Shown here: positions 5,080 through 63,756 of the stretch, one piece after another | How positions within the stretch are numbered: position 1 is the stretch's first letter | Layout: the number at the start of each line of letters is the position of its first letter | Assembly (NCBI RefSeq): GCF_964213995.1 | Contig: NC_135808.1 | Span: 74,462,001-74,526,000, forward strand | Origin: Mustelus asterias | Lineage: Eukaryota | Reading direction: 5' to 3' | DNA: 64,000 bases | The notes under the pieces: model-generated | What the model was told of the DNA's origin: nothing | The model's database searches: none | The model's input: only the letters and a program-made list of their open reading frames with translations | Program-made: the position numbers and the translations under genes

Positions 5080-5215
5080 TCTGTGTCTTTATAAGCTCTG
5101 TTTGTGAACAGAATTCCCACTCACCTGAAGAAGGGGCTTAGAGCTCCGAAAGCTTGTGTGGCTTTTGCTACCAAATAAACCTGTTGGACTTTAACCTGGT
5201 GTTGTTAAACTTCTT
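5080..5215 (+). mobile_element. Penelope-like pseudo-LTR fragment
   Basis: Matches 1325-1440; contains a hammerhead motif and CCAAATAAACCTGTTGGACTTTAACCTGGTGTTGT. Confidence 0.8.
5122..5158 (+). ncRNA. Minimal hammerhead ribozyme motif, best-formed copy
   Basis: cac CUGAAGA a ggggc-uuaga-gcucc GAAA gcuu gug; stem I extends with cca/ugg. Confidence 0.72.
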
Positions 5216-7188: not shown

Positions 7189-8912
7189 AGGCTTAACCAA
7201 GGTCTTATACAACTGCAACAGGATTTTCCAATTCCTTTACTCAATGCCCTGGCCGATGAAGGCCAGCATGCCATACGCCTTCATGATCACCTTGTCCACC
7301 TGAGTTACCACCTTCAGAGAACCAGGAATCTGCACGCTTAGATCCCTCTGTATGCTAATATTTCTAAGGGCGCTATCATTTACTGCATACTTTCCTTCTG
7401 TAGTAGACTTTTCAAATCGGATCACCACACATTTGTCTGGGTTAAATTTGATCTGCCATCTTTCGGCCCAGGTATCCAGCTGATTTATATCCTGCTGTAT
7501 CGTCTGACAATCTGCCCTCACTATCCGCTACTCCCCCAATTTTTGCATTATCTGCAAATTTGCTAATCAGACCACCTACATTTTCCTCCAAATCATTTAT
7601 ATATATTACAAACGACAGAGGTCCCAGCACTGATCCTTGTGGAACACTGCTTGTCACAGACCTCCAGTTAGAAAAGTACCCTTCCACTGCTACTCTCTGC
7701 TTTCTATGCCCAAGTGTGGAGATGCCGGCGTTGGACTGGGGTAAACACAGTAAGAAGTCTCACAACACCAGGTTAAAGTCCAACAGGTTTATTTGGCTAC
7801 CAAATAAACCTGTTGGACTTTAACCTGGTGTTGTGAGACTTCTTACTGTCCTATGCCCAAGCCAGTTTTGTATCCATCTTACCAGCTCACCTCAGATCCC
7901 ATATGACTTCACCTTCTGTATCAGCCTGCCACGAGGAACCTTATCGAAGGCTTTACTGAAGTCCATGTATACAACATCCACTGCCCTGCCCAGGTCAATT
8001 TTTCTTGTCACTTCCTCAAAGGACTCAATCAAGTTTGTGAGACAGAAGAACAATGTTAGCCACTCTCCAATCCTCTGGTACCTCGCCTGTGGCTAAAGAG
8101 GATACAAAGATTTTAGCCAAGGCCTCAGCAATTTCTTCCTTCGCCTCTCTCAATATTCTGGGATAGATCCTATCTGACTCTGGGGACTTGTCCACCTTAA
8201 TGTTTTTCTAAACCTCCAATACCTCGTCCCTTTTTATCTTGTGTGCTAGAATGTCAACATCTTCCTTTCTACTCTCATCATCCACCAATCCTTCTCCTTT
8301 GTGAATACTGATGCAAAGTACTCATTAAGGATCTCACCCACCTCATCTGGCTCCACACAACTTCCCTCCACTGTCCTTGTGTGGACCTACCTTTTCCTCA
8401 GCTTCCCTTTTCCTCCTTATATACGCATAAAAAGTCTTTGGATTCTCCTTAATCCTGCCTGCCAAGGGCATTTCATGGCTCTTTTTGCCCTCCGGAGTCT
8501 CTATTTAAACTCTTTCCTGCTTTCTTTGTACTCCTCAAGAGCCTTATCTGTTTTCAATTTCCTGAAATTTATGTATGCCTCTTTCTTCTTTTTCACTAAG
8601 CTCACAATCTCTCTTGTCATCCAGGGTTCCCGAACCTTGGCATCATTATTCTTCATTTTTACAGGGACATACTTGTCCTGAATTGTTAACAAATGACTTT
8701 TAAAAGACTCCCACATACCGGATGTGGATTTACCATCAAACAGCCACCCTCACTCTACATTCCCTAGCTCCTGCCTAATATTGTCGTAATTAGCCTTCCC
8801 CCAGTTTAGTACTTTCACTCTGGGACTACTTTTATCCTTTTCTACAAGTATCTTGAAACTTATAGAATTGTGATCACTGTTCCCAAATGGTCCCCAACAG
8901 TACCACCTGGAA
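6634..8912 (-). mobile_element. 5'-truncated CR1 (HER1-like) LINE with a broken ORF2
   Basis: ORF pieces VPQGSVLGP, SKFADN, YCVQFWSPHY, FFIQRVVN; (TGTTCTTT)n tail. Confidence 0.9.
7715..7850. mobile_element. Penelope-derived fold-back mini-insertion, 11-bp TSD
   Basis: CTATGCCCAAG at 7704-7714 and 7851-7861; perfect 50-bp arms 7747-7796 / 7800-7849 with a 3-nt loop. Confidence 0.85.
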
Positions 8913-10539
8913 GCGGAACTTCCAGGTGGTACTGTTCACATGTGTCCATTACCCACGTCCTTCTCAATGTAAGATCTTGGGTTTGGAAGGTGCTGTCTTA
9001 AGGAGCCTTGGTGAATTCCTGCAGTGCATCTTGTAGATGGTACACGCTGCTGCTGCTGTGCAAATGTGGTGGAGGGAATTATTGTTTAAAATGCTGCATG
9101 TGGTGCCAATCAAGTAGGCTGCTTTGCCCTGGATGGTGTCAAGCTTCTTAAGTGCTGGTTAGGGCTGCACTCGTCCAGGCAAGTGGAGAGTATTTCATCA
9201 TACACCTGATTTCTGCCTTGTAGATGGTAGACAGGCTTTGGGGAATGAGAAGGTGAGTTACTCGCCATAGAATTCCCTGCCTTTGACCTGCTCTTGTAGC
9301 TACAGTATTTATATGACTAATCCAGTTCAAATTCTGGTCAATGATAACCTCCAGGATGTTGATAGTGGGGAATTCAGTGATAGCAATGCCATTGAATGTC
9401 AAGGGGTGATGGTTAGATCCTCTCTTGTTGGAAATGGTCAATGCCCAGCACTTGTGTGGCATGAATATTACTTGCCACTTGTCAGCCTAAGCCTGGATAT
9501 TGTCCAGGTCTTGCTGCATTTGGCCATGGAATGATTCAGTATCTGTGCTTGCAGGCTTGACACAACACATGCTGGGGAAAACCCCATTGCTAATGTGAAC
9601 AGCTGAACTCCGTGATTTAAAATTAGCAGCATTTTATGTACATTTTTCAGTACATTGTACCACAGATTCTTGCAGCACAGAAGGAGGTCATTTGGTCCAT
9701 TGTATCCGTGCTGGCTCATTGAAAGAGTTATCCAATTTGTCCCATTCACCCTCCTCTTTCTTACAGCCCAATAATTGTCTCCCCCTCTTTACCCAATTCC
9801 CTTCTGCAAGTTACTATTGAATATGCTTCACCACTCTTTCTTACTGTAGCATTGAAGTGACTGCTGGCTAGTTACTGCTATTTGTTGCTTTTCTTCTTTG
9901 CATATGTCCCATTGTTTCAATCCACCTCTTTCAGTTGTGCAATGGATGTTTTTGATAAAGGTGCCCCATGGAAATGTCTTCACTTCTCTCCCTGAGGAGC
10001 AACTCTGAAGCTACAGATTACCATTGCAGTTCCTCCAAAAGCAGCAAACATCTTTATTCAACCACAAAATTGGGTCACACAGTGGGTAAAAACAGAACCT
10101 TAGAAACTGACAAAATCTAAAGAATCATAATTTTGCAGACTTTAAATAGATTTGTGCATTTTAAAAAAGCTAAATAATCAATAAATCAAAGACATGCCAT
10201 CTCCCACATCATTAATTTCTGTATCTGTAAATTGGCAAAGCAAACCCATACGGATCTAACAGCAGTGGCAGTTTTACAATGTACCAATCTCAGAATGGAA
10301 CCTCACTCGTCAAAAGCGTGAACTGTGAAATTAGTTAAGAAGGTTTGTGTGCTTGCAGGCTGGTTTAACTGCATACTTAGCAATTGACATTTCTTTAAAA
10401 GCCAATCTAAGACTGTCCTGCCATGTTCTTCCTGGCTCAACATCACTTAATTGCTTTTTCTCATATCTACATCAAGCTGCGCAACTCCTCATGCCCTTTA
10501 ACTGCATCTTCTAGGATGCTTCTAGCTGCGTTGGTGCTT

Positions 10540-11240
10540 GCAGAGTTTAGTTAGAGGGATCCATATCCACAGATCTCTAAAGGTTGCCACTCAAGTGGAT
10601 AGAGCTGTGAAGAAGGCATATAGTGTGTTAGCTTTTATTAACAGGGGGTTGGAGTTTAAGAGCCGTGGGGTTATGCTGCAACTGTACAGGACCTTGGTGA
10701 GACCGCATTTGGAATATTGCGTGCAGTTCTGGTCACCTCACTATAAGAAGGATGTGGAAGCGCTGGAGAGAGTGCAGAGGAGATTTACCAGGATGCTGCC
10801 TGGTTTGGAGTGTCGGTCTTATGAGGAAAGGTTGAGGGAGCTGGGGCTGTTCTCTCTGGAGCGGAGGAGATTGAGGGGAGACTTAATAGAGGTTTATAAA
10901 ATGATGAAGGGGATAGATCGAGTGAACGTTCAAAGACTATTTCCTCGGGTGGATGGAGCTATTACAAGGGGGCATAACTATAGGGTTCATGGTGGGAGAT
11001 ATAGGAAGGATATCAGAGGTAGGTTCTTCACGCAGAGAGTGGTTGGGGTGTGGAATGGACTGCCTGCAGTGATAGTGGAGTCAGACACTTTAGGAACATT
11101 TAAGCGGTTATTGGATAGGCACATGGAGCACACCAGGATGGTAGGGAGTGGGATAGCTTGATCTTGGTTTCAGATGAAGGTCGGCACAACATCGTGGGCC
11201 GAAGGGCCTGTTCTGTGCTGTACTGTTCTATGTTCTATGA
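10540..11240 (+). mobile_element. Young 5'-truncated CR1 (3' ~700 bp), same subfamily as 28880-29643
   Basis: Open ORF2 C-terminus (LVRPHLEYCVQFWSPHY...FFTQRVVGVWNGLP); (TTCTATG)n tail. Confidence 0.92.
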
Positions 11241-12544
11241 TGCAGGATGGTGTGCAGTTCTGCCTTGTCCCGGGCCCCTGGTCAAAACCTGCTGGTCACT
11301 GCCTCCTGTCACCCTCTGGGAATGGGAACTGGGGAGGTGCAACAAGTAGTGCTCCCATTACTTTGAAAGCCATGAAGTGGGGGAATATGGGCAATGCCAC
11401 ACTGCCGCTTGTCTTCAGATTCCATTTCCTGTCTCCCAACTGGGCTTTCCAACTGTCTCTTTTCAGCTCTTTCCTTTCTCCAAAATGGCTTTTGCAAAAA
11501 CCTTGTTAAAAGAATCTTTAGCGTTTAAAAAGTTTCAATCATTTTTTCCCATCATATGAAGCTACTTATGTTTGAAGCTATGCAACACCCTTCATTTTGA
11601 GGAGCAGGGTGTTAGCTTGACTTTTCTCCTGCAGCACAGTTGAAGGACTGGTGGGTCAGGGAGCTGGTGTAAGTGGGCTCACTTTATCTGATGACTGGCT
11701 GCCAATCATGATTTCACCTAGAGCAACCTGCACAACCTAGTTCCAGCAGTTCTTCCCCCAGGGCAGGATGGAACAATCCATTGTCTAATGTGCAGATCTG
11801 GAAGAACTTGGGTCCATTGAGATTGAAAAGAGATAAATGAGAATGGCCATGTGTTAGACACAAAATGGCATTTGAAAGGTAAATGGTGCATTACTTTCAA
11901 TTATATCGTGATAAAGAAATGTTGTCATGAAAAAATGAAAGGCAAGCTAAGAACCACATCCGGAACCACTTGAGCAGCGGTTAATATCTGCAGTGACCCT
12001 CTAGGAAGGATCAGCAAGACATTCAGGAGACTCTGGAATAATTCACAAGACAGCTAAATACTCTGGCAAGAGGAATCATAGGTGCTGGACACGACCCCCT
12101 CTCTCCTATGTTTTGTGATATGTCATAAATACTTTATCAGTTTAAAATAATACATTTACAAAATGAACACCTAACCAGTGTCAAATGCAATCAAAATAAA
12201 TGAAACCCATCTTCCGAGTGTTAAGCGTTCACTAAAGTTCAGCAATTCAGTTGATTTGTTTTACTCTACCAAGGAAGGGTAGCAACATCAGAATGCTTTT
12301 TCTGGCACACTCCCTCCATAAACTGCTGATTTCCACAGCAAATTGAAACAATCCACCTATGGAGTAGGGGTTCAAACAGAATAGAGTTCAGTGTTCTTAA
12401 TGGAAATCCACCGACTGCATGGTTATTGTCAATCTCTTCAGTAAATGTTTTATTTTCAGAGTTTGGCATCAAAGGAAACGGCTGAAATTTTGTACTGAAA
12501 TCATTAATTCATGAATTCTCATTTCTCTTTCCTCCTCCCAAAAG

Positions 12545-12799
12545 TTCCATGTGCCCCTCAGAATGTACAAGCTGATGTTGACACTGCCACAGCTTTTGTA
12601 ACGTGGCAGCCGAGTAATCTCACAGTGTCGTACGCTGCAACAGCAGAGGGGAGTAATGGACACATCACCACCTGTACCACATCGGAAACACACTGTCAAA
12701 TCCCAGATCTTCAATGCAGCCAAATATACAGCATCTCTGTACTGGCATTTGATGAAAACTGCAGCAGCATCCAAAGCTCCAGTTACGATATTCAGACAA
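12545..12799 (+). CDS. FN3 exon F, repeat 1 (VPCAPQNVQADVDTAT...YDIQT)
   Basis: cctcccaaag|TTCCATGT ... CAGACAA|gtaaga; 255 nt; 5 Cys (lacks second Cys). Confidence 0.88.
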
Positions 12800-12824
12800 G
12801 TAAGACAGAAAGAAAGAAAAAAGC

Positions 12825-13160
12825 TTGACTTTATAAAACACCTTTCATTTTTTGAGGACATCTTGAAACACTTCACAGTCAAGAGGTTACTTTTGAAGTG
12901 CTGTCTGTGTAAGCAAACCGAGTAATCAATTCACTCACTTCAAGCTCTTGAAACAGAGGTTGAAATGAATAATAAGTGAATCTGTTTTGACTTCCTTTAT
13001 TGGGCGATGAATACTGGCTAGGATATCTTCCTGCTCCCCTTAAGGAAAAGCAGATTAGGTGTGAGTCTCATTGGGAAGGCAGCAGGTGGGAAACCAGCAT
13101 TGCCTCACTGCAACCACACCAGATAATTGTCTAACTGAGGTGGATCCCAAAGGTGACCTC
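12825..13160 (-). mobile_element. Old DeuSINE-like remnant; homologous remnant after exon F of repeat 3 (~44620-44735)
   Basis: Similar to the better preserved copy at 39775-40487 (ACATCTTGAAACACTTCACAG versus ACATCCCAAAGTACTTTACAA). Confidence 0.4.
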
Positions 13161-13674
13161 CCACCTTTGTGGGGTCAGTTGGAGCACAAATGGCCCGTCA
13201 GACTCCACAGATCCAGTGCGAGCCTTTAGTACTTTGATTTACACCACATAATAAAAGGGTCACTCATGGGTTGCATTACATGGGTTCTCTTACAGGACCT
13301 GTCACCCTGGTGATGCCATCCTGCAGTTGGGTTCCAGGATGCTCCTGTACACAGTGGCAGGAGTGCAGCTCCATGCCCATTGATTTCATCCCTGTTCAGC
13401 CTACATTTCAGCAACTTTTACTCACTGTGAATATCAGCAATAAGCTAGAGATTTGGGATCTGCATCCTTGTCAGTCCATCTGGCATCATTAAAACAAAGA
13501 TTTGAGCTGAAATTTGGTGGTCCTAAAACACATTTTTTGTACTGACTCACCACAATTATAAGTATGAATCCTTTGTTAAATTTATTTAAGTTTCATGAGC
13601 TGCTAACAAGGACCACTTGACCAAAGCATTGTTTGACATGAACCTAGTGCACATTAATATTTATATTTCCACAG

Positions 13675-13935
13675 CACCATGTTCCCCAGATGAAATCATT
13701 GTGAATGTGAACTGTAATTCTAATAGCGTCATAATACTATGGAGTCAGGCTAATGGAGCTGTGTCATACGATATAACTGCAGAAGGCAGTGATGGACATT
13801 CGCACTCATACAACACAGCCAAGGCACACTATGAAGTTCTGGATTTACACTGTGGACAGTCGTATAATATAACTGTAACAACACTCAGTTACCATCAGAA
13901 TGGCATTTCAAGTACATCTGTCCAAACCCGAACAG
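13675..13935 (+). CDS. FN3 exon G, repeat 1 (APCSPDEIIVNVNC...VQTRT)
   Basis: ttccacag|CACCATGT ... CGAACAG|gtaaag; 261 nt; 3 Cys. Confidence 0.9.
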
Positions 13936-14047
13936 GTAAAGCTATTAATCCTTAAATAATACATAGCATGGAAATACTTTTACCTTTGTTTTTTCTGCAT
14001 GTTTACAGGACAGAGAGACTTGATATTCATGTGTATTTTCTAAATAG

Positions 14048-14308
14048 CACCGTGTGTCCCTGAGAATCTAAAAACTGAGCTGGATTGTGATTCGAACACA
14101 GTCTCCTTCTCGTGGGATGTCACGGATGGAGCAAAGTTATACACTGTGACCGCCCACGATAGTCAAGGAGTCGCAGCTTTATTCAACACCAGAGATACAA
14201 AGGCTCAAATCCCACACCTACAGTGTGGTGAATATTATACAATCTTTGTTCTAGCAACGGATAACATCTGCAAAAGTCCTCAGAGTGCAGTGGTGAATGT
14301 ACATGCAG
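14048..14308 (+). CDS. FN3 exon H, repeat 1 (APCVPENLKTELDC...VNVHA)
   Basis: ctaaatag|CACCGTGT ... CATGCAG|gtaacg; 261 nt; 4 Cys. Confidence 0.92.
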
Positions 14309-15232
14309 GTAACGCCTCATTTCCATAATGCATTTTGTGACAAATGCTTAACAAATGCAATCTTGTGTTTTACGGACAGCATTTAAATGCTTAAATTTTT
14401 AAGCAGTTAATTTTGCTCTGGTGCGGGTTTGTGCATGGTGCAGGTTAAGTTGCTGGAAGGTGCACGGCTGGAATTACTCTGTACGTTGCTGACAATGTAG
14501 ACTGGCAAAGCTGTAGGAATACATTAGGTGCAGTGCTTAAATAGCAGAGGGGAAACAGTGGTCAAGGTGAAATGTTCAGCATTTTATAGCAGAAACCAGT
14601 CCCATCTGGTCTGTCCTTATTTAAGATCTGCTGAATCTTACGGTTGGGTCTCAGGTGGGTATTTGTACTGCCTGAAGCGGGTAGGCGTTTTATTACCGTC
14701 GACATAAGGGTTGGGAATGGTTCATGATTATTTCCAATCACATGAACTGTGCAGCAAGTCTCCAGTGCATCCTACAAAAGCTGACAACAAGGCCTAGCTA
14801 CTCTTGCAGGTGAGAGGGCTTTAAAATGGCTCATACATGTTGAAGGTAAGTGCATTCAATCTTTTAGATGACTCTTTTGTAGTTTTCTTTTTAATCAGTT
14901 CTGGGTTTTCATGATCTTTTGTGTTAGGTGCAATTATTTACTGATTTTGCCCAGGATTTCCTTCATTGGCAACAGAGGATTTGGCACCAGGAAATGTTTG
15001 CTGAGATGCTTGGAGGGAAAAGGAAACATGTGAAAGATGGCTAGTCAGATCAGACTGTACAAGAGTGGCTCTGTGCTTTTCCACACCACTTATACACCCC
15101 AGCATCTGTGGAGAGAAGTAGCCAAATTCACCTTGGCAATGTTTTACAGTTTGGAACCATCAGGCAAATGGTATACTTGAGATGCTTTGAAGAACATTTT
15201 AGTTTCTGCATGTGAACATGACTCAATAGTCA

Positions 15233-16386
15233 TGTAGAAGCATCGGGTTCCAATAACTGGCAACTAGAGGCTAAAAACAGTCGATGTTTATTAACAGTAA
15301 CTGAGCAGCTCTTGCATGCTGTCCGCCTGCACTCCGGGAAAACCCCCAAGCTGCTGTCATGTGATCCCAGTCTGTATCTGCGCCATTCCAACATCCACAT
15401 GACCACCCAGTCTACATCTTCTTCATTTAAGTTGGGAGAGCCTGTAGTACTGAGGTGTAACAATATAGTAGAATAGTCACAAGTATGAACTATTTACGAC
15501 ATATAAAATTAAACTGGGCTAACAACACCTGACTACTTATAACGTGCAGAATACCGATTAGGCTACAGCAACTGGTGCATTGCCCATCGCCTCTCCTTTC
15601 CCCTCCTTTTAGAACACAGTCCATTCATAGATGAGTTCATCACATAGTCCTTGAACATTGTATTTGGTTTATTCGTGTGCCCTGAGTAAGTGATTAGACC
15701 AGTTGGGCGTGCTTGACATGCCCTCGGGTTGATATTTTCAGTGTAAATGGCATCAGGTGTTGTGGCATACCCTGAGGCTGCAGGGCTTGCTGCAGTGGCC
15801 CCTGAAGGGGCCTTCATTTCAGCAGTATTTCAGGATCCTCCTCCTCCATTTGGAAACAAAGGACTTGTATTCCTCAACCGCCTCAGGACCCACTAAATAT
15901 AGGAGTCTGTACACTTGTACCTCTTTGATTTGTCCAAAAGGCTGGCACCACAGTAGATATGACGCTCTTTTTCAAATTTTGTCCAGTTGTCTGAGATGAT
16001 TTTGTCACAGTAAGGAGTCTAACAACACCAGGTTAAAATCCAACAGGTTTATTTGGTAGCAAACACCATGGTGTTTACCCCAGTCCAACGTCGGCATCTC
16101 CACATCATGATTTTGTCAAACACGAGCGGCTCAATGCAGCAAGTGGCCATTCTGTCAATTCCTGAAACCATGCAGAGGTACTGGGTTCCAATACCTGGCG
16201 CCCGGGGACTAACAACAACTGATGTTTATTAACAGTAACTGTGCAGCTCTTAAAGCCTGTGCTCTGGGAGAAATCCTGCACAACTGACATGTGACCCCTT
16301 TTGTATCCACGTCATCGCAGCATTCACATGACCACCTAGTCTACAAGTCACTTCGATAATACTAGTCACTTGTTAGTGCTGTCGCA
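15233..16386 (-). mobile_element. Internally deleted, decayed Gypsy (Mag-like) LTR element
   Basis: Diverged direct repeats starting at 15233 and 16171; minus strand ...TGCA|TGGTTTCAG (PBS), gag start MATCCIEPLVFDKIISDNWTKFEKE...QVYRLLYLVGPEAVEEY, integrase-tail-like KDYVM, purine tract AAAAGGAGGGGAAAGGAGAGG before the 3' LTR. Confidence 0.6.
16008..16106. mobile_element. Penelope-derived mini-insertion with inverted 5' part, 12-bp TSD
   Basis: ATGATTTTGTCA at 15996-16007 and 16107-16118; 16008-16068 inverted, 16071-16106 direct. Confidence 0.85.
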
Positions 16387-16612
16387 ATACAGAATTAATG
16401 CAGGTTTACATTTATGGTGTTAATTTGGATGAAGTATGGACACACTCCATACTTTCATTTTCTATTCAAATTCCTGCGCTTCTAGAATGAAAAGTTTGAA
16501 TACAATTATTGATTGTTTAGTAAACACGTCCATCCAATTATTTATTTGAACTTACATTAATGATTTGATTCTATCAACTGACATCCATTCTCACTTTCAA
16601 TCTTATTTTCAG

Positions 16613-16873
16613 TCCCTTGTGATCCACAGAATGTAGAAGTGAGACTGGATTGTAACCTAAATACAGCTTTGGTGTCGTGGGATGACAGTAGAGGGGCGCT
16701 GTTGTACACTGCCTTTGCTGAAGGACCCGGTGGGAGCATCACATCGTGCAGCACATCAGAAACATCATGTAGAACTCCCAAGTTACTCTGTGGCCAGTTA
16801 TATTCTGTATATGTCATCGCGTCTGACAGCACATGTAACCAATCTCAGAGTTCAATGGTTGAGCTTCAAACAG
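16613..16873 (+). CDS. FN3 exon I, repeat 1 (VPCDPQNVEVRLDC...VELQT)
   Basis: ttattttcag|TCCCTTGT ... CAAACAG|gtaact; 261 nt. Confidence 0.93.
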
Positions 16874-16997
16874 GTAACTTTTGTTAACTCGTGTTAACTT
16901 ATAAACTTATAATAACATGCAACAAGTATCAGTAACCTCAAGGTCTCTCAGTTGGTTCACACCACCTAATTTCTTCCATTAAATGTATACTTTCCCT

Positions 16998-17231
16998 TGG
17001 TTTCGGTTAGCTCAGTTGCCTGGACAACTGGTCTGTGATGCAAAGTGACGCCAACAGCGCGGATTCAATTCCTGTACTGGCTGAGGTCGTTCATGAAGGC
17101 CCTGTCTTCTCAGCTTTGCCCATTGCCTGAGGTGTGGTGATCCACGGTTTAACTCACCACTAGTCAGCTCTCCCTCTCAAAGGAGTGGGCAGCCTGTGGT
17201 CATCTGGGACTATGGCAACCTTACCTTTTAC
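16998..17231 (+). mobile_element. tRNA-derived SINE (second family)
   Basis: GGTTAGCTCAGTTG A box, GGATTCAATTCC B box, tail GGGACTATGGCAACCTTACCTTT; second copy at 39868-40088. Confidence 0.75.
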
Positions 17232-17372
17232 TCTCAACCCTGCACATCTTCCCGTAATAACAGGAAGAATTATGTTGAAACTTTTTGAAATGCTGTTTGT
17301 ATATTCACATTGTTGAATCTAAGTAAAGCACTGTCTGTGCCTTCATCCATCTTGTTTCTCTGGTACCTTTAG

Positions 17373-17633
17373 CCCCTTGCAGTCCCCAGATTGTCAGTGC
17401 TTATTTGGAGTGTGCAACACACACAGCGTCAGTATTGTGGGAGCAGAGTGACGGTGCAGTGAACTACATCGCGATTGCAGAAGGAATGGAAGGAGACAAG
17501 TATTCATGCAATACAACAGAGGAAAGCTGCGAGATCGTAGACCTCCCGTGTGGTCAGATATACAGCATCACGATATTAGCAATGGATGAGAATTGTGCTA
17601 GTTTACCAAGTCCAGCTTTGGAAATTCAAGCAG
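17373..17633 (+). CDS. FN3 exon A, repeat 2
   Basis: cctttag|CCCCTTGC ... CAAGCAG|gtaaaa; 261 nt. Confidence 0.93.
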
Positions 17634-17869
17634 GTAAAAGCTTTGGTTCTCTTTTTATGAAGATAAACAAATAAAGGTCCTGAAAGACGGAAAAAAATAG
17701 AAGTAACATTATCAAGCAGTGTATTAATAAACACCACCTCACATATTGTAAATTGCTAATTGCAAAATTACTCTGAGTTAAAGACTCATATATCCAGGTG
17801 TTAATTCGATCAGATGTTGGTCAAATTGCATCTTCTTCATGCTGTATAGCTCATAATTGCACAGGGATT

Positions 17870-20800: not shown

Positions 20801-22375
20801 GCGTAAGTGGGTCATTTTCAGGTTGGCAAGATGGGACGAGTAGTGTGCCACAAGGGTCAGTGCTAGGCCCGCAACAATTTACAAATTACTTGGATGAAAG
20901 GACCATATATGGTTGCTAATTTTGGTAATGATAGATAGGAAAGTAAGTTGTGAAGAGGACACAGGGAGTCTGCAAAGGGATATAGATAGGTTAAGTGAGT
21001 GGACAAAAATTTGGCAGATGGAGTGAGTGCAATGTGGGAAAATGTCCACTTTGGCAGGAAGAATAATAAAGCAGCTTATTATTTAAAAGGAGAGTGACAG
21101 TAGAATTTTGAGGTACAGAGGGATCTGGATGTCCTGGTACATGAATCAGGACAAGCTAGTATGGAGATGCAGACGGCAAATGGAATGTTGTCATTTATTG
21201 CAAGGGGAATGGGATATAAAAATAGGAAGTTTTGTTGCAGTTGGATGGGGCGTTGGTGAGATGATATCTGGAGTACTGTGTGCAGTTTTAGTCTCCTTAT
21301 TTAAGAAAAGGTATAAATATGTTAGAAACAATTCAGAGAAGATCCACTTGACTGGTAGCACCTGGGAAACACATCCCTGCTGACTCCAAATACCCCACAT
21401 TTCACACTCGAATGAGCGTTAATTGACATCAAGAGGACCTCTGCCCCTCACTCAGGAGGAAGTCAGCCATTGTGAGCTGCTGGCCAATCAGACTGGGCCG
21501 TAGCTTTCCAATCCCTGCAACAACAAAAGCTGAAGCAGACTGAAGAGGAACTTTAAGAAGATGCCGGAGCCTAAATCCTGGGACCAGAAGACAAGAGAAG
21601 TTTAAGGGGTCTCAGGGTGGGAGGGTAGGGAAGGCAAAGGGGATGATCGGGGTGTCAGTTCGGGCATCCACCAAGCCAGGTAAATCCTCCAGTTAACCTA
21701 TAAATGGAAGCTGGGCAGGAAATGGCCCTTAAGTAGCTAATAATTTGCCACTTATTAGCCTCAGCTGGGGCAAGGGGAGACGTCACAGCTGAGGTCTTGC
21801 CGAGTAATTGTAAAATCACTGCAAGGTTGGTGCAGGAAATTTAGGATGGCCAATCCACCTAACCCACACACCTTTGGAGTGTGGGAGGAAACCAGAACAC
21901 CCGGAGGAAACCCAGGCAGAATGTGCAAACAGCGACACAGACAGTGACCTAAGCCGGGAATCGAACTCAGATCTCTGGCGCTTTGAGGCAGCAGTGCTAA
22001 CCACTGTGCCACCGTGCCGCCCATTCAGACCATAAGATCCTGAGGGAACTTGACGGGGTGGATGCTGAAAGGATGTTTCCCCTTCTGGGAGAGACCAGAA
22101 CCAGCAGATACAGTTTAAGATTAAAGGGTTTTCCATTTAAGATGAGGATAAGAAGAATTGTTTTCTCTCGTTGGGTCACGAGTATTTGGAATTCACTGCC
22201 TGAGGGGAAGGCTTATTGAACACTTTTAATGTGGAGGTAGAGAGATTGTTGACTCACAAGCTTACCTGTGGTGGGCAGGCATGTGTTGAGGCCACAATCC
22301 GGTCATCAATTATCTTACTGAATTACTCAAGGGGCCAAGTTGCCTTACTCCTGCTTTTAATTCATTTGATCACAT
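17870..22375 (+). mobile_element. Old fragmented CR1 (ORF1 end ~17870-18000; ORF2 ~19405-21355; 3' end ~22023-22375) with nested insertions
   Basis: Decayed IIMGGFN, PSPWL, KAENYRLVSL, QHGFVKGKS, VPQGSVLGP, EYCVQF motifs with many stops and frameshifts. Confidence 0.8.
21846..22022 (-). mobile_element. V-SINE 5' half
   Basis: GGGCGGCACGGTGGCACAGTGGTTAGC head on the minus strand. Confidence 0.85.
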
Positions 22376-23137
22376 GTTTGTATTACAGAGAATGTTTTAT
22401 GGGGGCTCCCAGAACTCATACAATGAAGGGGAGCCAGTGACACTGATCAGGTATCCCACTGGATGCCAAGCTAGAACTGAGATCAGGAGCCTGAATCTCC
22501 TTTCAGCAGGATTGCCTGGAGCAATGCACCTTCTGACGTGGAAATCGTATCTCTAATACCAAATCGAAAGACCGGCAATTGAGAGTTGATTGACTAGAAA
22601 TCGTAGCAGTTTATTATTAGATTACTGTACCAATAATAGAGAGTGTAACAACTATTCATCCATCCATTGCCAGGCACCTGGAATGTGGGTGAAGGAACTC
22701 ATTATAAAACCAGAGCGTACCTCTTCTCATTCTTACCTTGTTTGTATAATCCAAATTTGCTATGTATCCATTTGCACATATATTTTGGTTTCTTAACCAG
22801 ACCTGAGCCCATTATTTCTATTTCACATTTCTTTTACATCTTGGACCATTTTCTCCTCTCACATCCTGTGTACTCATTCAGTTCTCCTTCAGGACCCTTG
22901 ATAAAACTCACTTCTTAGATCAAGCTTTTATCATTACTAATAGCTCCACCTTTGCTCAGCATTCATTTTCTCTTTTACACTTCATTAACCAGCGTGCTAT
23001 GTTTTTGCATGTTAATTGAATTATAAATATGCAAATAGTTATTGTTCTGTCAGTAAGTCAATGTTTAGTCATGTATATGTGGTATTTAAATGTACAATGG
23101 TTTAAGAATACTTTCCTGTGTTTTCTTCTTTTCGCAG

Positions 23138-23398
23138 TGCCTTGTATCCCACAGAATGTGGTCGCTCACATCAACTGTGAAAGTAATAATGTGTCAGTGT
23201 TTTGGGATCCCAGTAATGGTACAGAGTCATACCTTGTAACAGCCCAAGGAAACAATTATCATTGGACCTCATGCAATGCAACAGACACTGAATGTGTGAT
23301 CTCGGATGTGTACTGTGGACTGAGCTACTATATAACTGTACAGGCAATCCGCATGCAATGTAACAGCTCACAAAGCTCTGCTGTTACAGTTAAAACAG
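23138..23398 (+). CDS. FN3 exon B, repeat 2
   Basis: ttttcgcag|TGCCTTGT ... AAAACAG|gtaatt; 261 nt. Confidence 0.93.
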
Positions 23399-23425
23399 GT
23401 AATTCTAGACAAGGAATTGGGCAGT

Positions 23426-23498
23426 GGTCAGTTAGCTCAGATGGTTAGACGTGGTGCTAATAACACCAAGGTTGCGGTTTCAATCCCCATACTGACCA
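23426..23498 (+). pseudogene. tRNA-Ile(AAT)-like pseudogene
   Basis: Acceptor GGTCAGT/ACTGACC-A, anticodon arm TGGTG-CT-AAT-AA-CACCA; D stem lacks a G (GAC for GAGC) and the T stem is mismatched. Confidence 0.75.
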
Positions 23499-23510
23499 GT
23501 AAACTTTCTT

Positions 23511-23804
23511 AGGGTGGCACTGCTGCCTCACAGCGCCAGGGACTCAGGTTCGATTCCCGGCTTTGGTCACTGTCTGTGTGGAGTCTGCATGTTCTCCCTG
23601 TGTCTGCGTGGGTTTCCTCCGGGTGCTCTGGTTTCCTCTCACAGTCCGAAAGACATGCTGGTTAGGTGCATTGGCCATGCTAAATTCTCCCTCAGTGTAC
23701 TTGAACAGGCGCTGGAATGTGGCGACTAGGGGAATTTCCCAGTATCTTCTTTGCAGTGTTAATGTAAGCCTACTTGTGACATTAATAAATTAACTTTAAA
23801 CTTT
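23511..23804 (+). mobile_element. V-SINE with alternative 3' tail
   Basis: B box, V core, tail CTTGTGACATTAATAAATTAACTTTAAACTTT. Confidence 0.85.
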
Positions 23805-24801
23805 GAGTAAAAATTCTAAAATATACGCTGGTTACACATTACGAGGGGTGGAGAGGGCAGGCGGCTCGCTGCTCTGGAAGCAAAGTCAGCAGGAAGCCGA
23901 CTCACTCCATAGCCACAAGGTACTGTGAGCCGTCTAAATTGCCTGACAGACTTTTAATTCCACCCTTCACTGGGGGGGAGTCCCACCTGCAGGAACTGTC
24001 GGCCAATCCGATTGGCCAGAGCAAGATAAGTTCGGTATGTCCAGCTACAAAGGTTTGGATAATTCAGGGAGGTGGAATGGGTGGGGTAGTTTGGGGGTGC
24101 GGGAGGTGCGTTTTGGTGATCAGGATGTTAGGGGGCTACTATCTTTCGTGACTGACCACAAGGAGCAAAGAACTCCCGAAGATAGTAATCCCCACCTCCT
24201 TGCAGCCATTTTAAAAAGCTTCTGGATTGCTCACTTCCACACAACTGTCCACTCCAACTGTATTATGGTGTGGGCAACATGGTATCAGGGTCAACTGACT
24301 TGTTAACAAGCTCAATTGACCCTAGATTATTTATTCAAACATGGCGGGTGGGCTACCAATTTTATCTCCTGCCCACAGACTGTGCCATGGGGATGAGCTA
24401 AGCAGCGGGAAGGAAGGCACCTGCCCTATTTTATGCCAAAAACCCACCTGTGTGGTAGTTAAAACCCAACCTGTACAAAATTGATGGCACATTGTCATTT
24501 CTGTTCCTTATAGAGAGTCACTACATAAAATACAAAGCACAGAAACAGGCTATTCAGTCCATGCCAGCGTTAAATTCCATTCAAGCCCTTTCTTCATCCA
24601 AGTCTACAGGCACAACGCTCTATTCCTTCTCCATCATATGCTTTTCTAGTCTCAATAGTATTATCAATATTGCATCGATATTATTCCCTTCAGCAACACT
24701 CTGTGATAGCGGGTACCACATCCCAACCACTCTCTCTCTTACTAAATCACGTGGTTCTGCACTTCTTCAGTTGGTAACATTTATGAATTCTCTTTTTGCA
24801 G

Positions 24802-25056
24802 TACCATGTACCCCACAGAATGTTGATGCTTACATGAACTGTGATGCTGGATATATGTCAGTCTCATGGGAGTTAAGTCAAGGTGCAATATCATACATTG
24901 CAACTGCTGAAGGAAGCAATGTACAACAATGCAGCGCTAATGAAACATTGTGTGACATCACTGAGCTGGACTGTGGAGAAACCTACACCATCACAGTTCG
25001 TGCACACGATGATTCATGTGACACTGCTGAAAGTCCGTCCATCACAAAGAAAACAG
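24802..25056 (+). CDS. FN3 exon C, repeat 2
   Basis: tttttgcag|TACCATGT ... AAAACAG|gtaact; 255 nt. Confidence 0.93.
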
Positions 25057-25257
25057 GTAACTAAAGAGACGAGGATTTTTCCATATCACGGATTGCTGCA
25101 TCAATCTCACTAACCCTGATTTCTACACTGTCCAAATACTGTTCTCTAGAAAAACTCACAAATACATTTGCACAAAGATGTCAGTTAGATTTTAATTCCA
25201 CAAAGATAAGCAGCTGCTGGTCAGGTGCTCTTCATCTGCTCTTTTCATTCTTTTCAG

Positions 25258-25518
25258 CATCGTGCATCCCACAGAATCTCGATGTCCAGCTGGATTGTAA
25301 CACAAACGATGCTTCTGTGTCCTGGGGCCACACTAAAGGTGCAGTGTCGTACTCTGCAACAGCAGAGGGAGGTGATGGGCACACAGTATCATGTGATACA
25401 GCCAACAGACAGTGTCAAATAGCCAATCTACACTGTGGACAGATGTACAATTTAACTCTGACAGCACTGGATGGTGTATGTGACACTTCACAAAGCTCTC
25501 ATTTTGAATTCAGCACTG
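25258..25518 (+). CDS. FN3 exon D, repeat 2 (ASCIPQNLDVQLDC...FEFST)
   Basis: cttttcag|CATCGTGC ... AGCACTG|gtaagt; 261 nt. Confidence 0.93.
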
Positions 25519-25729
25519 GTAAGTCTTTTGTGCGGAATCGGATGGTTCAAAACCGGTACAACTGATTCCAATAACAGCTTGATTTATATCGGACATTCCA
25601 CATAATAAAACATCCCAAACACTTCTTTAGGGTAGGGAATACAGATATTGAACAGGAAGTGCACTTGAAGTTGTGACTGCAACCAAGTTCTAAGAGCTAG
25701 ATTTCAAGGATCCTTTGGATGATAGGTTA

Positions 25730-25905
25730 AGGAAGTCTTAACAATCCACAGTATGAACATGTCAACATGGTTTTATGAAAAGGAAATCTTGTTTGAGAAA
25801 TTTATTAGAATTTTTTGAGGATGTAACTTGAGTAGATATAGTGTACCAACATTTGCAAAAGGCATTCAATAAGGTGCCACACAACATAAGTGCTCATGGA
25901 GTTGG
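25730..25905 (+). mobile_element. Short CR1 RT fragment at the D-to-G junction of repeat 2
   Basis: Encodes QHGFMKRKSCLRNLLEFFEDVT ... KAFNKVPH. Confidence 0.75.
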
Positions 25906-26026
25906 TGACTGCTTTATCCAAGTTATTTAAGTTCTCTGAGATAGATGCTTGCAAGGTACATTTGTTCAAAACAATTTCTCACATCAAACTCAGTGGATAT
26001 TAATGTTTAAATTGCCTTTCCCACAG

Positions 26027-26287
26027 CACCGTGTGCTCCAGATGAAATCATTGTGAATGTGGACTGTAATTCAAATAGAGTAGTAGCATCGTGGGGATGG
26101 TCTGATGGAGCGATATTATACGATGTAACTGCAGAAGGCAGTGATGGACATACACACTCTCACAACACAACAGAGACAAGCTATGAGATGTTGGATTTAC
26201 ACTGTGGACAGACCTATAACATAACAGTGACAACACTCCGATATAGCCGGAGTGGCTTCTCAAGCACTTCTGTCCAAATACAATCTG
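26027..26287 (+). pseudogene. FN3 exon G, repeat 2: open frame but 5' splice donor lost (probable pseudo-exon, skipped exon or read-through terminal exon)
   Basis: Acceptor cccacag|CACCGTGT intact; the donor position reads CAATCTG|acatct versus CAAACTG|gtacta in repeat 3; read-through gives DIYY-TAA ending at 26301. Confidence 0.75.
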
Positions 26288-26399
26288 ACATCTACTATTA
26301 ATCCTTTAATAATATCATCCATATAAATCATTTTACATTTATTATTAATAATATTAACAGGACGGAGAAGATTAATATTCATTTGTATTTTCTAAATAG

Positions 26400-26660
26400 C
26401 ACCGTGTGTTCCTGAGAATCTAAAAGCTGAGCTGGATTGTGATTCGAACAGAGTCTCATTCTCATGGGATGTCACGGATGGAGCAAAGTTATACACTGTG
26501 ACCGCTCAAGATAGCCAAAGAGTCGCAGCTTTATTCAACACCAGCGATACAAAGGCTCAGATCCCACACCTGCAGTGTGGTGAATATTATACAATCTCTG
26601 TTCTAGCAACAGACAACATCTGCAAAAATCCTCAGAGTGCAGTGGTGAATGTACATGCAG
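26400..26660 (+). CDS. FN3 exon H, repeat 2
   Basis: ctaaatag|CACCGTGT ... CATGCAG|gtaacg; 261 nt. Confidence 0.92.
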
Positions 26661-28146
26661 GTAACGCTCATTTCCATTAAACATCTTAAAAAAATAAATT
26701 TTGTCATCCTCAAGCGGTATTTAAATATGTAAACTTTTATATTTCAATTATACATTGACTAAATGGATCTCTATGCATGGTGCAGATTAACTTGCATTCT
26801 TCCTAGAATAGAATGTGCAGGTAGGGTTGCTCATTATGTCTTTGATATCTTCGGTCCAAAAACTTAGCAATATGTTTCAATTTTGCATCCTCTTTAACCT
26901 AACTGTTCCAGTGAAAGTTGTTCCAAAGGAATTTGGATAAAGGAGCATTTTCCTAAATTGCCTACTGAGCAAGCAACATTTACCCATATTCCAAATCTGC
27001 ATCGTCCTCCTCCCCCCAAAACCACCCCTTCCTGCATAAGAAATGAGAAATAATATTGTATGAGTTATACATGGGCAAACATTACATGTGAGCGAAATAT
27101 GAGCCAAAACTATTTACTGCAGAGCCGGAAACTTAAGGAAGTAAATATTGAATTTACTCACGTACGAATGGACATCTTTAGGGATTCATGGAAAGGAGAA
27201 AGTAAATTTCTGATGGAAACAGATTAAACTGTGTCTAAAAATGACTCAGCTGATGGACTAAGTCAGTGTGATATCTTTCCCAGTAGCTCTGTCTTGCAGA
27301 ATGGAAGAGTACGACTTTAAGAAGAGACAGGAGACTCAGAGAAGCAAAAGCAGCCCATGTATTCTTATACTATACTCACATCATTAACCCTACAAGTAGC
27401 ACTACACTGCACTTGTTTTGCACTGTTTTTTATGTTATGTCATGTGGAAGTCAGCCCTGCAGGAAAATTGGGGGTAAATTCCCATTGACCAGCATGTCAT
27501 AGAGACTGACATAGATTTCAGCATAAGTTCAGCGTTAAAAGGTTTGAGGAGAAATGAATAGGAGCAGTTAATATCCCTAAGTCAGTGGCTTGGATTTTCA
27601 CCAAGTTGGGAAGATCCGGGAGCCCTGTAAAAATGGTGGGCATGTCCCCATTCCGAGATTCTGACGCCATTCCCGGGCTGCCTGAGTTTCAGGAGTAAAG
27701 AATACGGGCTGGTTCCTGATACTCCCACCCTGGCCAGCTCCTTTGCAGAGATAGTCCACAGTAATTTTAATTGGGTCAGGCCAGGTTTTTAAGAATTCAT
27801 AGTTCATGGCTCGTCAGAGGAGTCGTGAACCCTAGTCTGAATGAGAGGACCTTTCGAAAGGTCAGCTCAAAGCGTTCCCCACATGACCCCCTAAAACCTC
27901 TCATGCTCCCAATGCCAACTCTGCTCTTCCATCCACTTCCTATCACCCCTCCTGTTCACTATGCCAAGCTATGACATTTCATACTTCATGCCCACATGAA
28001 CTAGAACCTATTTTTCCTGTAGTGTATAGGGATATGTATAAGAAAAACTTTGAAAAAAATAATTCATTCAAACATTTCTCCTATATTGAAAAACATAATT
28101 CCACTACAAGTTAATAAAAGTGCCAACCATTCGGACCCTTTAAAGT

Positions 28147-28490
28147 GGGCAGCACAGTGGCACAGTGGTTAGCACTGCTGTCTCACAGCGCCAGGGACCC
28201 GGGTTCAATTCTAGCCTTGGGTAACTGTCTGTGTGGAGTTTGCACATTCTCCCCATGTCTGCGTGGGTTTCTTCTGGGTGCTGTGATTTCCTTCTACAGT
28301 CCAAAGATTGGCGGGTTATGTTAATTGGCCATGTTAAATTGCCCCTAGTGTCCCATGATGTGTAGGTTAAGAGGATTAGCAGGATAAATATGTGGGGTTA
28401 CGGGGATAGGGTCTGGGTGGGATTGTTGTCGGTGCAGGCTCGATGTGTCAAATGGCCTCCTTCTGCACTGTAGGGATTCTATGATTCTAT
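28147..28490 (+). mobile_element. HE1-type V-SINE, full length
   Basis: A and B boxes, V core, ATTCTATGATTCTAT tail. Confidence 0.9.
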
Positions 28491-28879
28491 CAGTAACAAT
28501 AACTGCAAACACTTAAAATCACTGAACATGTGTAAACAATATTGTGAAATTGACAGCAGAGATCAGGGAGCCTGAGCTGTCAAACAATGTTTTCTCTGGG
28601 AGTGCACTCTTATAGTTGCCTGGGCTCTCAGCCCAGCCTCATCATGCATGCAAGGTTAAGACCCCAATCAATTAAGAGAATACTAAAACCTCTACGCCCC
28701 AGAGAAAACATTATTTGATTATAGTTCAGGTTTTCTGATCTCTGCTGTCAATTTCACAGTGATTGTATAAAGTTAAATGGTTTCAAGGGATTATCGTTTC
28801 TTGTTATTGATATTTTAAAGGGTCTGGATGATTGACAATTTCATTAGTTTGCCATGAAATGACATTTTTCAACATATGA

Positions 28880-29643
28880 TTTTGGTAGGACTAATTTAAA
28901 TGTGGATTACAGGGTCAAAGGTAGGGTTCTGAAGACTGTGGAGGAACAGAGAGATCTTGGGGTCCATATCCACAGATCTCTAAAGGTTGCCACTCAAGTG
29001 GATAGAGCTGTGAAGAAGGCCTATAGTGTGTTAGCTTTTATTAACAGGGGGTTGGAGTTTAAGAGCCGTGGGGTTATGCTGCAACTGTACAGGACCTCGG
29101 TGAGACCACATTTGGAATATTGTGTGCAGTTCTGGTCACCTCACTATAAGAAGGATGTGGAAGCGCTGGAAAGAGTGCAGAGGAGATTTACCAGGATGCT
29201 GCCTGGTTTGGAGGGTAGGTCTTATGAGGAAAGGTTGAGGGAGCTAGGGCTGTTCTCTCTGGAGCGGAGGAGGCTGAGGGGAGACTTAATAGAGGTTTAT
29301 AAAATGATGAAGGGGATAGATAGAGTGAACGTTCAAAGACTATTTCCTCGGGTGAATGGAGCTATTACAAGGGGGCATAACTATAGGGTTCATGGTGGGA
29401 AATATAGGAAGGATATCAGAGGTAGGTTCTTTACGCAGAGAGTGGTTGGGGTGTGGAATGGACTGCCTGCAGTGATAGTGGAGTCAGACACTTTAGGAAC
29501 ATTGAAGCGGTTATTGGATAGGCACATGGAGCACACCAGGATGATAGGGAGTGGAGTTGCTTGATCTTGGTTTCAGATAAAGCTCGGCACAACATCGTGG
29601 GCCGAAGGGCCTGTTCTGTGCTGTACTGTTCTATGTTCTATGA
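28880..29643 (+). mobile_element. Young 5'-truncated CR1
   Basis: Open 220-aa ORF2 C-terminus; near-identical to 10540-11240. Confidence 0.92.
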
Positions 29644-30472
29644 TAAAGTTATGAATTAATTACTTTTTCTCCAAAGTTTTCTTTACACACTCCACTATAC
29701 CCTATTGAGTTCATTGATTCTAGGCAGTGCATAGTGGGTCAATGGTGATGGAAGTACAATAGCTTGGCATGAATAGATGAGGGGTCATGGGATGGGGGGT
29801 GTGGGTGGAAGGACAGAGCTTGACATGGGGGCATGAGGGACTCATGAAAGGGCAGATATTGGCATAGGAGAAATAGGGGCCAGATGAGGGAGTAGATGGG
29901 GTTCACAATGGGACATTGACGGGCATAAGGAGCGTTTGGAGGATTAGGAAGTGTAAGGGGTGAGGGCTGGAGAATATATGTATTTTTATATTAACTGGCA
30001 CAAAGTCCACAGCATACAGGCAGGCCTTTTAAACAGCCTGTCTCTGCATCCATCAGACCCTATGTCTGCCTTTGAACGTCTTCCCAGGTTGTCTAACCAG
30101 ACACCAGCCCTCACCTGGCACTTAACCGTAAAGATCTCGCCTTAGTGGGCACTTTCTCCCAAGACAGGCAGTTCAAGGCAAGAATTTTCACAACAACCCC
30201 AAACCACCTCAAGGATGAAAATCCAGGTCAGTGTCACAAACAATCACTAAACCGCTATCATTGTTTTGGTCAGTTCCAATAATTGGTGACTGATCCACTG
30301 AATAGACTATATGATTAATTTTCCATTCACTTTGCTGTCTTTACAGAATGACATGTTCCAATGTAATTATTAGCTATTCAGTAAATCCGTCCATCCCTTT
30401 TTTACTTGAGATTACACTGATGGTTTTATTCTGTCATTTTCCATCCATTTTAACTTTCAATCTTATTTTCAG

Positions 30473-30733
30473 TCCCTTGCAATCCACAGAATGTAGAAGT
30501 GAGACTGGATTGTAACCTAAATACAGCTTTGGTGTCATGGGATGACAGTAGAGGGGCGCTGTTGTACACTGCCTTTGCTGAAGGACCCAATGGGAGCATC
30601 ACATCGTGCAGCACATCAGAAACATCATGTAGAACTCCCAAGTTACTCTGTGGCCAGTTATATTCTGTATATGTCATCGCGTCTGACAGCACATGTAACC
30701 AATCTCAGAGTTCAGTGGTTGAGCTTCAAACAG
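30473..30733 (+). CDS. FN3 exon I, repeat 2
   Basis: ttattttcag|TCCCTTGC ... CAAACAG|gtaact; 261 nt. Confidence 0.93.
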
Positions 30734-30845
30734 GTAACTGCTTGATTTACTGACAGGTATTGCCCTAACAAGAGCAAAATGGAAGAAACGTCCAGCATGC
30801 TTTGTTAACTAATGTACACTGCACTATATTGGCTTAAAATACTAA

Positions 30846-30990
30846 TGATGTGGAGATGCTGACGTTGGACTGGGGTGAACACAGTAAGAGTTTTAACAAC
30901 ACCAGGTTAAAGTCCAACAGGTTTGTTTGGTAGCAAATTTGCTATCAAATAAACCTGTTGGACTTTAACCTGGTGTTGTTAAAACTCTTA
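30846..30990. mobile_element. Penelope-derived fold-back mini-insertion
   Basis: CTTAAAATACTAA at 30833-30845 and 30987-30999; 53-bp arms 30885-30937 / 30938-30990, no loop, 2 mismatches. Confidence 0.85.
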
Positions 30991-31018
30991 AAATACTAAA
31001 CCAAAGCATCAGTGATTC

Positions 31019-40240: not shown

Positions 40241-40334
40241 GTAAGAAGTCTAACACCAGGTTAAAGTCCAACAGATTTATTTGGTAGCAAAAGCCACTAG
40301 CTTTCGGAGCAGGCTGTCCCTTCGTCAGGTGGGT
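40241..40334 (-). mobile_element. Penelope-derived mini-insertion, 14-bp TSD
   Basis: ATATTTTACATCCA at 40227-40240 and 40335-40348. Confidence 0.82.
40294..40332 (-). ncRNA. Minimal hammerhead ribozyme motif
   Basis: ccac CUGACGA a gggacagccugcucc GAAA gcua gugg; stem II has one mismatch. Confidence 0.6.
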
Positions 40335-55383: not shown

Positions 55384-55432
55384 GTAACTAAAGAGAAGAG
55401 GATTTTTCCATATCAGGGATTGCTGCATCAAT

Positions 55433-63491: not shown

Positions 63492-63515
63492 CCCAAAACT
63501 TTTTGCGAATAAAAT

Positions 63516-63756
63516 TGATGCACTATCAATCAAGCAAAGACTAGTTTGTATGCAAGAACAAATAGGCTTTTATTCGCAAAAGAATTGGAGCACACCCATG
63601 CTGATGAACTGGTCCCGGCGACTGAGGCAGGGGGGTTGGGAGCAGTCACTTTCATACCTGGACCGGGGGGGAGGAGTCTCAGGCAGGGCCGGCAGGGGCA
63701 TGCCCAGGCATGTCACACACACACACAGACAATAAGCTTACCAGTGGTTTACCACA
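63516..63756 (-). repeat. 5' LTR (241 bp)
   Basis: TGTGGTAAACC...GATAGTGCATCA on the minus strand; TATGAA 63651-63656, TCAGT 63621-63625, AATAAA 63569-63574. Confidence 0.95.

Follow-up and report, generated by a model that had tools for sequence, protein, structure and literature searches.

A stretch of 64,000 nucleotides (nt) of the Mustelus asterias genome (contig NC_135808.1, positions 74,462,001 to 74,526,000; hereafter the window, in which all plain coordinates below are given) contains three very short insertions, at 7715-7850, 16008-16106 and 30846-30990, which raise the question of whether dead copies of a retrotransposon can preserve the cut made by a ribozyme in its RNA. The three inserts are dead stubs of a Penelope-like element (PLE) whose longer copies carry a hammerhead motif, and a preliminary description of the window had proposed that their extent matches the 3' product of hammerhead self-cleavage. 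Counted genome-wide, the 5' limits of this family form a sharp peak on the first base after the predicted cut (position +1). On the basis of these genomic end counts, the probability that +1 ends record hammerhead self-cleavage is in our estimate about 0.78.

The family is recognizable by a core 29-mer with 171,007 exact matches in the genome (3.68 Gb), 10 of which lie in the window. The predicted cut is 15, 13 or 6 nt ahead of this core depending on the subfamily, and 90-99 nt ahead of the ATG of the open reading frame (ORF). The surrounding motif has all the parts of a minimal type I hammerhead, i.e. CUGANGA, an extra base, stem II, GAAA, a palindromic loop III, UH and stem I. In 48 natural copies selected on the core motif, and hence not on the extra base, the H or the pairing in stem I, the extra base before stem II is an A in 48/48, H is never G and the stem I pairs are kept in 46, 47 and 46 copies, with C-G/T-A exchange. 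The first of these pairs is formed in 46/48 copies, as C-G in 28 and as T-A in 16, a difference that goes back to few independent events. Self-cleavage at the UH bond is what we infer, solely from the +1 peak. On the opposite strand, the 5' edge of the hammerhead (e.g. 5120-5127), comprising stem I and the start of the catalytic core, reads as a consensus 5' splice site, and antisense intronic copies could serve as cryptic donors through it.

The 5' limits were assessed in a sample and by genome-wide patterns. The sample drew on 30 loci centred on the core, 40 windows surrounding further listed matches of contig 1 and 80 fixed-step windows on contigs 1-16, with hairpin-selected loci and the window itself excluded, and yielded 232 element arms, 230 of them with a callable 5' limit. 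Limits within 12 nt of the cut were called with a strict walk, a looser caller having over-extended some +1 ends to -5. The genome-wide patterns require three non-template bases just upstream, which counts true ends and ignores single substitutions. In subfamily A, position +1 is reached by 49,966 arms, of which 1,410 start there, compared with 211 ends over the four control positions -8 to -11 and 199 at -4/-5. Correction for the pass rate of the filter gives ~3,180 arms (6.4%) at +1 versus 169 and 250 per nt, which corresponds to an enrichment of 13-19-fold per base, or 6-9-fold if spread over two positions. Among the subfamily-A matches listed, the template base is present at -1 in 25/100 (by eye; here and below, such tallies over 100 listed matches concern matches from the first contigs), which is the level expected by chance, so that the end is indeed +1. 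Like filters in subfamily B give 747 ends at the cut against 146 in the control, the former being too low a figure since the most frequent fold-back junction does not pass. Ends culminate at +1, with a shoulder at +2, and in subfamily A the peak occupies a single base. Its position tracks the cut, which lies 15 nt ahead of the core in A and 13 nt ahead in B, rather than the distance from the 3' end. About one-third of the listed -4/-5 control ends look like restarts from +1, in which the first nine post-cut bases are duplicated ahead of the arm as in a template jump between cut ends.

These counts bear directly on the test that had been set beforehand, a pile-up of 5' limits within ~15 nt downstream of the cut. 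There is a sharp peak at +1, in two subfamilies, but no 15-nt zone. Of the 230 sampled arms, 28 have their limit at the cut or downstream of it, with 11 at -1 to +2, and the 17 that end at +3 to +15 are near the background of ~0.6% per nt. This distribution is also relevant to the possibility that a folded hammerhead, still uncut, stalls reverse transcriptase (RT) and makes it dissociate at the scissile bond, with no cleavage needed. The peak does sit at the helical junction of the ribozyme, minimal hammerheads cleave poorly in vitro, as stated in the available part of PMC4209133, and cleavage is dispensable in vitro for the Poseidon element PAc of Anolis according to the portions of PMC11167929 that could be consulted. 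However, a stalling enzyme would be expected to stop at the outer edge of stem I, at +4 or beyond, where ends are close to background, while stem I is only 3-4 bp long, ends inside stem II are rare and the stop is one base wide in subfamily A, all of which makes a stall an unlikely source of the peak. A one-base peak among ~50,000 arms, repeated in a second subfamily, is likely evidence that this weak ribozyme is active in living cells, and any genome with many hammerhead-bearing PLEs would allow it to be checked.

The largest pile-up in the sample, a broader peak than that at +1, lies further upstream, with 33/172 arms starting at -33 to -37 (5 nt), i.e. 4-9 nt before the catalytic core. Genome-wide, 7,328 arms have their start on an initiator-like A, or on the base preceding it, this A lying six bases ahead of the core motif. 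Among 100 of these matches listed, 40 are preceded by the template C, 52 by G, 5 by A and 3 by T, and setting aside 33 G cases (GTG, ATG) as possibly templated by the partner arm leaves G in 19/27 (by eye). A copied cap yields such an extra G in other retroelements. The upstream peak is thus likely, judging from these junction bases, to mark a capped transcription start. A promoter with an initiator in the pseudo-long terminal repeat (pLTR) is known for Penelope, according to the part of PMC2377424 at hand. A spliced leader was considered as its cause; there is an AG near -45, but few ends occur there. Whether +1 might be cut by a host nuclease, or be another transcription start site, can be judged by the same features. 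The step from -1 to +1 is mostly pyrimidine-purine, with a T at -1 in 29/48 copies, and such a step is present at many polymerase II starts. Nevertheless, ends at +1 lack the extra G seen at -35 (among the matches listed, G precedes 2/100 in subfamily B and 26/100 in A), and they coincide with the catalytic bond in two subfamilies that differ downstream, and stem I shows compensatory change, which renders this the least probable of the alternatives, and a very improbable one. The peaks at +1 and ~-35 likely mark the 5' ends of self-cleaved and of uncut, capped template RNA, respectively.

At the other extremity, the preliminary description had assumed a single fixed 3' end beside the ATG. Such a site exists (site A, -2 to +3 from the ATG, 102/232 arms), but there is a second fixed end (site B, -40 to -33, 88/232 arms) at a distance of ~36 nt, and most of the remaining 3' ends lie just after site B. 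In addition, the 3' end of some insertions (L120, L261-L268) is neither A nor B but lies 20-90 nt into the ORF, a hint of an additional, minor region of priming. A divergent (head-to-head) partner is found within 1.2 kb for 145/232 arms, and 68/74 pairs combine one A arm, which carries the tail, with one tail-less B arm, as against 1 A+A and 2 B+B pairs, ruling out two independent RNAs that freely choose A or B. Single arms with their own target-site duplication (TSD) exist for both sites. In short pairs (n=64), the tail-less arm is longer in 22, the tail arm in 18 and the two are equal in 24, a comparison that later erosion of palindrome tips could blur. Pure snap-back as a general mechanism is rejected in view of the 22 pairs with a longer tail-less arm and of the single TSD-flanked tail-less arms.

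Hairpins, which had been ascribed to snap-back at the ribozyme-made end, turn out to be the normal layout of this element family, with most tips upstream of the cut, and those with a gap of 0-30 nt (4,780) or 31-60 nt (4,994) are equally common. What is supported, at the cut, is the idea that RT snaps back on reaching the ribozyme-made end. In subfamily A, the cut-reaching arm is the tail arm in 31/38 A+B pairs versus 11/24 controls (31:7 versus 11:13; Fisher p=0.005), and in subfamily B it is so in 15/17. In many cases the partner arm begins 5-7 nt farther inward, the two having 1-2 bases in common, and short templated pieces are repeated. This bias fits fold-back of the tail-bearing strand, although it is not the whole story. 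It is also here that one has to consider whether the match to the cut is a coincidence, fold-back or a later loss of palindrome tips being directed by short self-complementary motifs in its vicinity. In subfamily A, 42/50 junctions at +1 are derived from the element, and subfamily B has a palindromic AT at +1/+2; junctions that recur have 1-2 bases in common with the partner arm. Yet subfamily A, which is without a palindrome at +1, has the larger peak. Among 49 listed subfamily-B hairpins in which both arms reach +3 (554 such hairpins in total), the two arms lie within +3 to -2 in 25, and a longer palindrome at -6 to -1 holds the tip in only 0-1 (by eye). Furthermore, a check for which 20 further +1 loci and 40 control loci were retrieved found no fold-back in 6/50 arms at +1 and in 12/42 controls (13 were seen, one internal deletion being dropped). 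Scaled to totals, these fold-back-free +1 ends are still ~8-fold enriched per nt, or at least 1.9-fold at the confidence limits, and some of the loci (L212, L294 and L185) have clean TSDs. Coincidental symmetry is on balance a shade less probable than a stall, and would surprise us as the main cause.

To the element-derived junctions just mentioned must be added a series of other points that weigh against self-cleavage as the origin of the +1 ends. Most sampled arms (202/230) pass the cut, and inserts 1 and 3 of the window end in a zone populated at background rate. The fold-back-free comparison rests on 6 loci, the filter corrections assume random flanks, and 2 of 30 inspected +1 loci in subfamily B (L181 and L198) proved to be ribozyme-spanning copies with small indels. 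An Rfam scan gave no match for the ribozyme, and in the consulted text of PMC11167929 no RNA-seq reads of PAc start at the cut. At the upstream peak, G falls to 12/20 when GAG junctions are also set aside. Two further points concern the number of RNAs involved. If the tail strand were blocked at B by the second primer, tail arms should stop there, but no clear pile-up was seen among them (27 short tail arms of 115), and a pair may stem from one RNA or from two. In one hairpin (L167, contig 1:1272472-1272536), with similar cases among other hairpins listed, the subfamily signature beside the tip is not the same in the two arms, which suggests two RNA templates in at least some events.

How do the three inserts of the window relate to these peaks? 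All are present as first described, with TSDs of 11, 12 and 13 bp, respectively, and the two long hairpins are real, although the proposed upstream limits of 12, 1 and 8 nt shift slightly once subfamily is taken into account. Insert 1, between plus-strand TSD copies at 7704-7714 and 7851-7861, consists of a minus-strand arm (7715-7796) that ends at site A beside the ATG and carries a tail of ~36 nt, followed by a tail-less plus-strand arm of the site-B type (7796-7850). Its stem (7747-7796/7800-7849) has 50 pairs, 0 mismatches and a 3-nt loop, and its upstream limits are ~+14 in the A arm and ~+10 in the B arm if the copy is of the 13-nt type. Insert 3 (plus-strand TSD copies at 30833-30845 and 30987-30999, the latter overlapping the B end by 4 nt) has a minus-strand arm with a tail ending at A (30846-30938) and a plus-strand arm ending at B (30937-30990), which form a stem of 53 pairs with 2 mismatches (30885-30937/30938-30990). 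Both arms have their 5' limit at +6, and an AT is common to the two at the tip. In insert 2, flanked by plus-strand TSD copies at 15996-16007 and 16107-16118, the second of which starts with an ATG common to the element, the 5' part is inverted. A minus-strand arm ending at site B (16008-16069) meets a plus-strand, tail-only arm ending at site A (16071-16106) in a 16-nt palindrome (16061-16076). Its inverted arm has its 5' limit at +1 or +2, and it alone among the three inserts lands on the genome-wide peak. The palindrome may be read as two cDNAs both ending at +1 and annealed by AT, in which case the tail strand would have jumped through the shared six bases. The hammerhead is absent from all three inserts, which are a selected minority type, given that the 5' limit lies at the cut or downstream of it in 28/230 sampled arms. 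Because ends at +3 to +15 are near background, inserts 1 and 3 alone prove nothing. A microRNA precursor was dismissed as an explanation of the stems, the match to mir-3015 (37-38 bits against an Rfam gathering score of 59) being one that any long stem would give.

Both counter-examples named at the outset are real as well. A plus-strand subfamily-A arm at 5080-5215 runs across the hammerhead (predicted cut 5155/5156) to site B, and no TSD was found around it. A single minus-strand arm at 40241-40334 extends from site B to -34 within a 14-bp TSD, which makes it a member of the larger upstream peak, the likely transcription start.

The identity of the family rests on coding and structural features. 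The locus L076:1706-4450 has 915 codons without a stop and matches RVT_1 (E=4e-10). A domain of the GIY-YIG endonuclease (EN) type is found when its C-terminal part is searched (23.4 bits, cut-off 22.6), and goes unreported on the whole protein. The frame is without its first codons and overlaps the ATG-initiated frame of L274. RT is followed by GIY-YIG in a single ORF, as in EN-containing (EN+) PLEs. A C-x4-C-x2-C motif precedes the GIY-YIG motif in L076, L274, L067 and L005. A CX2-5CxxC motif in the RT-EN linker is a mark of the Neptune and Nematis clades in the accessible text of PMC8557442, and does not tell one from the other. As expected for EN+ PLEs, there are pLTR repeats in tandem or partial tandem, with units recurring at ~3 kb (L269 has the core and ATG twice at a spacing of 2,971 bp, L274 two cores 3,001 bp apart), and inverted 5'-truncated copies with a one-sided tail of 30-40 bp. 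In 62 insertions with a tail and an inverted arm, the longest shared flank has its mode at 12-13 bp versus 4-5 bp in mismatched flank pairs, and the TSDs are therefore not due to chance. Non-LTR retrozymes, which are tandem units with a complete hammerhead (bioRxiv 10.64898/2026.07.22.740005), were rejected, since the inserts have no hammerhead and are single TSD-flanked units.

How such stubs might arise can be outlined as follows. Transcription would start at ~-35 and the hammerhead would cleave a fraction of the RNAs. The protein would nick both target strands and start reverse transcription internally on the RNA, with A used for one strand and B for the other. Where priming is at the 5'-most repeat of the transcript, only ~100-135 nt would lie ahead, and the cDNA would run off the end of the RNA, at +1 if this is cleaved or at ~-35 if it is uncut. 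The cDNA would then fold back at its free end, or pair with the other cDNA over 1-2 bases, after which repair would close the hairpin; at the cut, the A-primed strand would usually be the one to reach the RNA end. Long copies would come from priming at a downstream repeat and synthesis through the uncut ribozyme. Insert 2 fits this scheme to the base, inserts 1 and 3 only loosely, through trimmed ends or ordinary truncation. The earlier suggestion that a short self-cleaved RNA is itself the template is probably wrong, since the 3' cleavage product would carry the whole 2.7-kb ORF. The template is likely this long product primed internally, and it is likely internal priming that makes the inserts short. 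Taken further, the family could be a base-resolution fossil map of capped (~-35) and germ-line 5'-OH (+1) RNA ends, in which cleaved RNA, primed beside the start codon, is diverted into dead hairpin stubs of 100 nt, the ribozyme decapping the message and wasting insertions as a built-in brake. We advance this tentatively, rating it slightly below even odds, and if true the in vivo efficiency of the brake would be readable for each subfamily from copy counts.

The rest of the window provides the setting. The inserts lie between fibronectin type III (FN3) exons of a plus-strand gene (tblastn exon map; Pfam fn3), which on this exon map would make their position intronic. At least 28 FN3-like exons in near-identical repeating groups are spread over 2890-59298 on the plus strand, as in an internally multiplied FN3-repeat gene. 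In the stretch 30460-30846, one of these exons is followed after ~100 nt by the start of insert 3, whose hairpin is close enough that splicing could be affected. A larger insertion of the same family (692-1478) has three arms, one of them inverted, a 10-bp TSD and hammerhead motifs, including a type I minimal motif found by pattern at 1012-1048 on the plus strand (predicted cut 1045/1046). Other mobile elements include a 1,011-codon open frame on the minus strand (46525-49560) with endonuclease- and RT-like motifs, which by eye we take to be a young CR1-type long interspersed nuclear element (LINE), shorter pieces presumably of the same type (10526-11161, 28863-29564 and 55388-56467, labelled by eye), and broken gag-pol-like frames on the minus strand (59745-63569; protease, RT, RNase H and integrase-like by eye) that we assume to belong to a long terminal repeat (LTR) retroelement. 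A long tandem array of a short unit at 42143-43519 keeps three frames open, and a tRNA-like match at 23426-23498 (plus strand, 37.3 bits) is probably the head of a short interspersed nuclear element (SINE).

The element type and its layout of inverted arm plus tail are already known, and a comparison with other systems helps to define what is added. In L1 twin priming, a 5' inversion arises from a second primer on the opposite strand of the target. Insert 2 shows such an inversion, but unlike L1 the Mustelus element has a fixed second priming site, and its two arms mostly span the same sequence, which results in palindromes. EN+ PLEs, as described in the available text of PMC3846280 and PMC8557442, share the head-to-head arms, the one-sided 30-40-bp tail and the TSDs, together with palindromes at the join, for which self-priming was proposed, and an initiator-like TCACT in the pLTR. 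In that text 5' limits are not mapped to the hammerhead cut, whereas here joins were counted genome-wide and two peaks emerged. The hammerhead likewise has the core motif, the extra base before stem II, the short stem I and the tiny palindromic stem III suited to dimers that are common to the minimal type I hammerheads of PLEs in the parts consulted of PMC4209133 and PMC6765202. The former states there that in vivo evidence was absent and proposes circles and tandem templates, while the present data point to linear cleaved RNA that is used directly.

A literature search, in which subscription papers and supplements (including Fig. S2 of PMC11167929) were not covered, returned no report of 5' limits piling up at a hammerhead cut. 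The closest precedent is R2, where, in the available part of PMC3774820, the ribozyme cut site matches 5' junction types. In R2 a self-cleaved 5' end sets genomic 5' junctions (PMC3774820), and the cDNA end snaps back after full-length synthesis, according to the accessible text of PMC11371274. R2 differs by its hepatitis delta virus (HDV)-like ribozyme, its priming at the RNA 3' end and its full-length active copies, whereas the cut-ended products in Mustelus are dead 100-nt stubs and a minority of copies. A similar mechanism is that of PAc, for which the consulted portions of PMC11167929 report two internal start sites that bound a tail (in vitro), priming of both target strands, an AC-rich start site and a hammerhead upstream of the start sites. 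Its protein requires ORF sequence that lies downstream of these sites (PMC11167929). The ORF of PAc begins inside the hammerhead and priming takes place ~110 nt into it (PMC11167929), while in the Mustelus element it would take place at the ATG, which is 90-99 nt downstream of the cut. A trace of cleavage, of which there is none in PAc products or RNA-seq within that same text (PMC11167929), is here likely present as a genomic peak. The two-start-site model is thereby extended to a second clade, in which the two sites are paired one-to-one on opposite strands.

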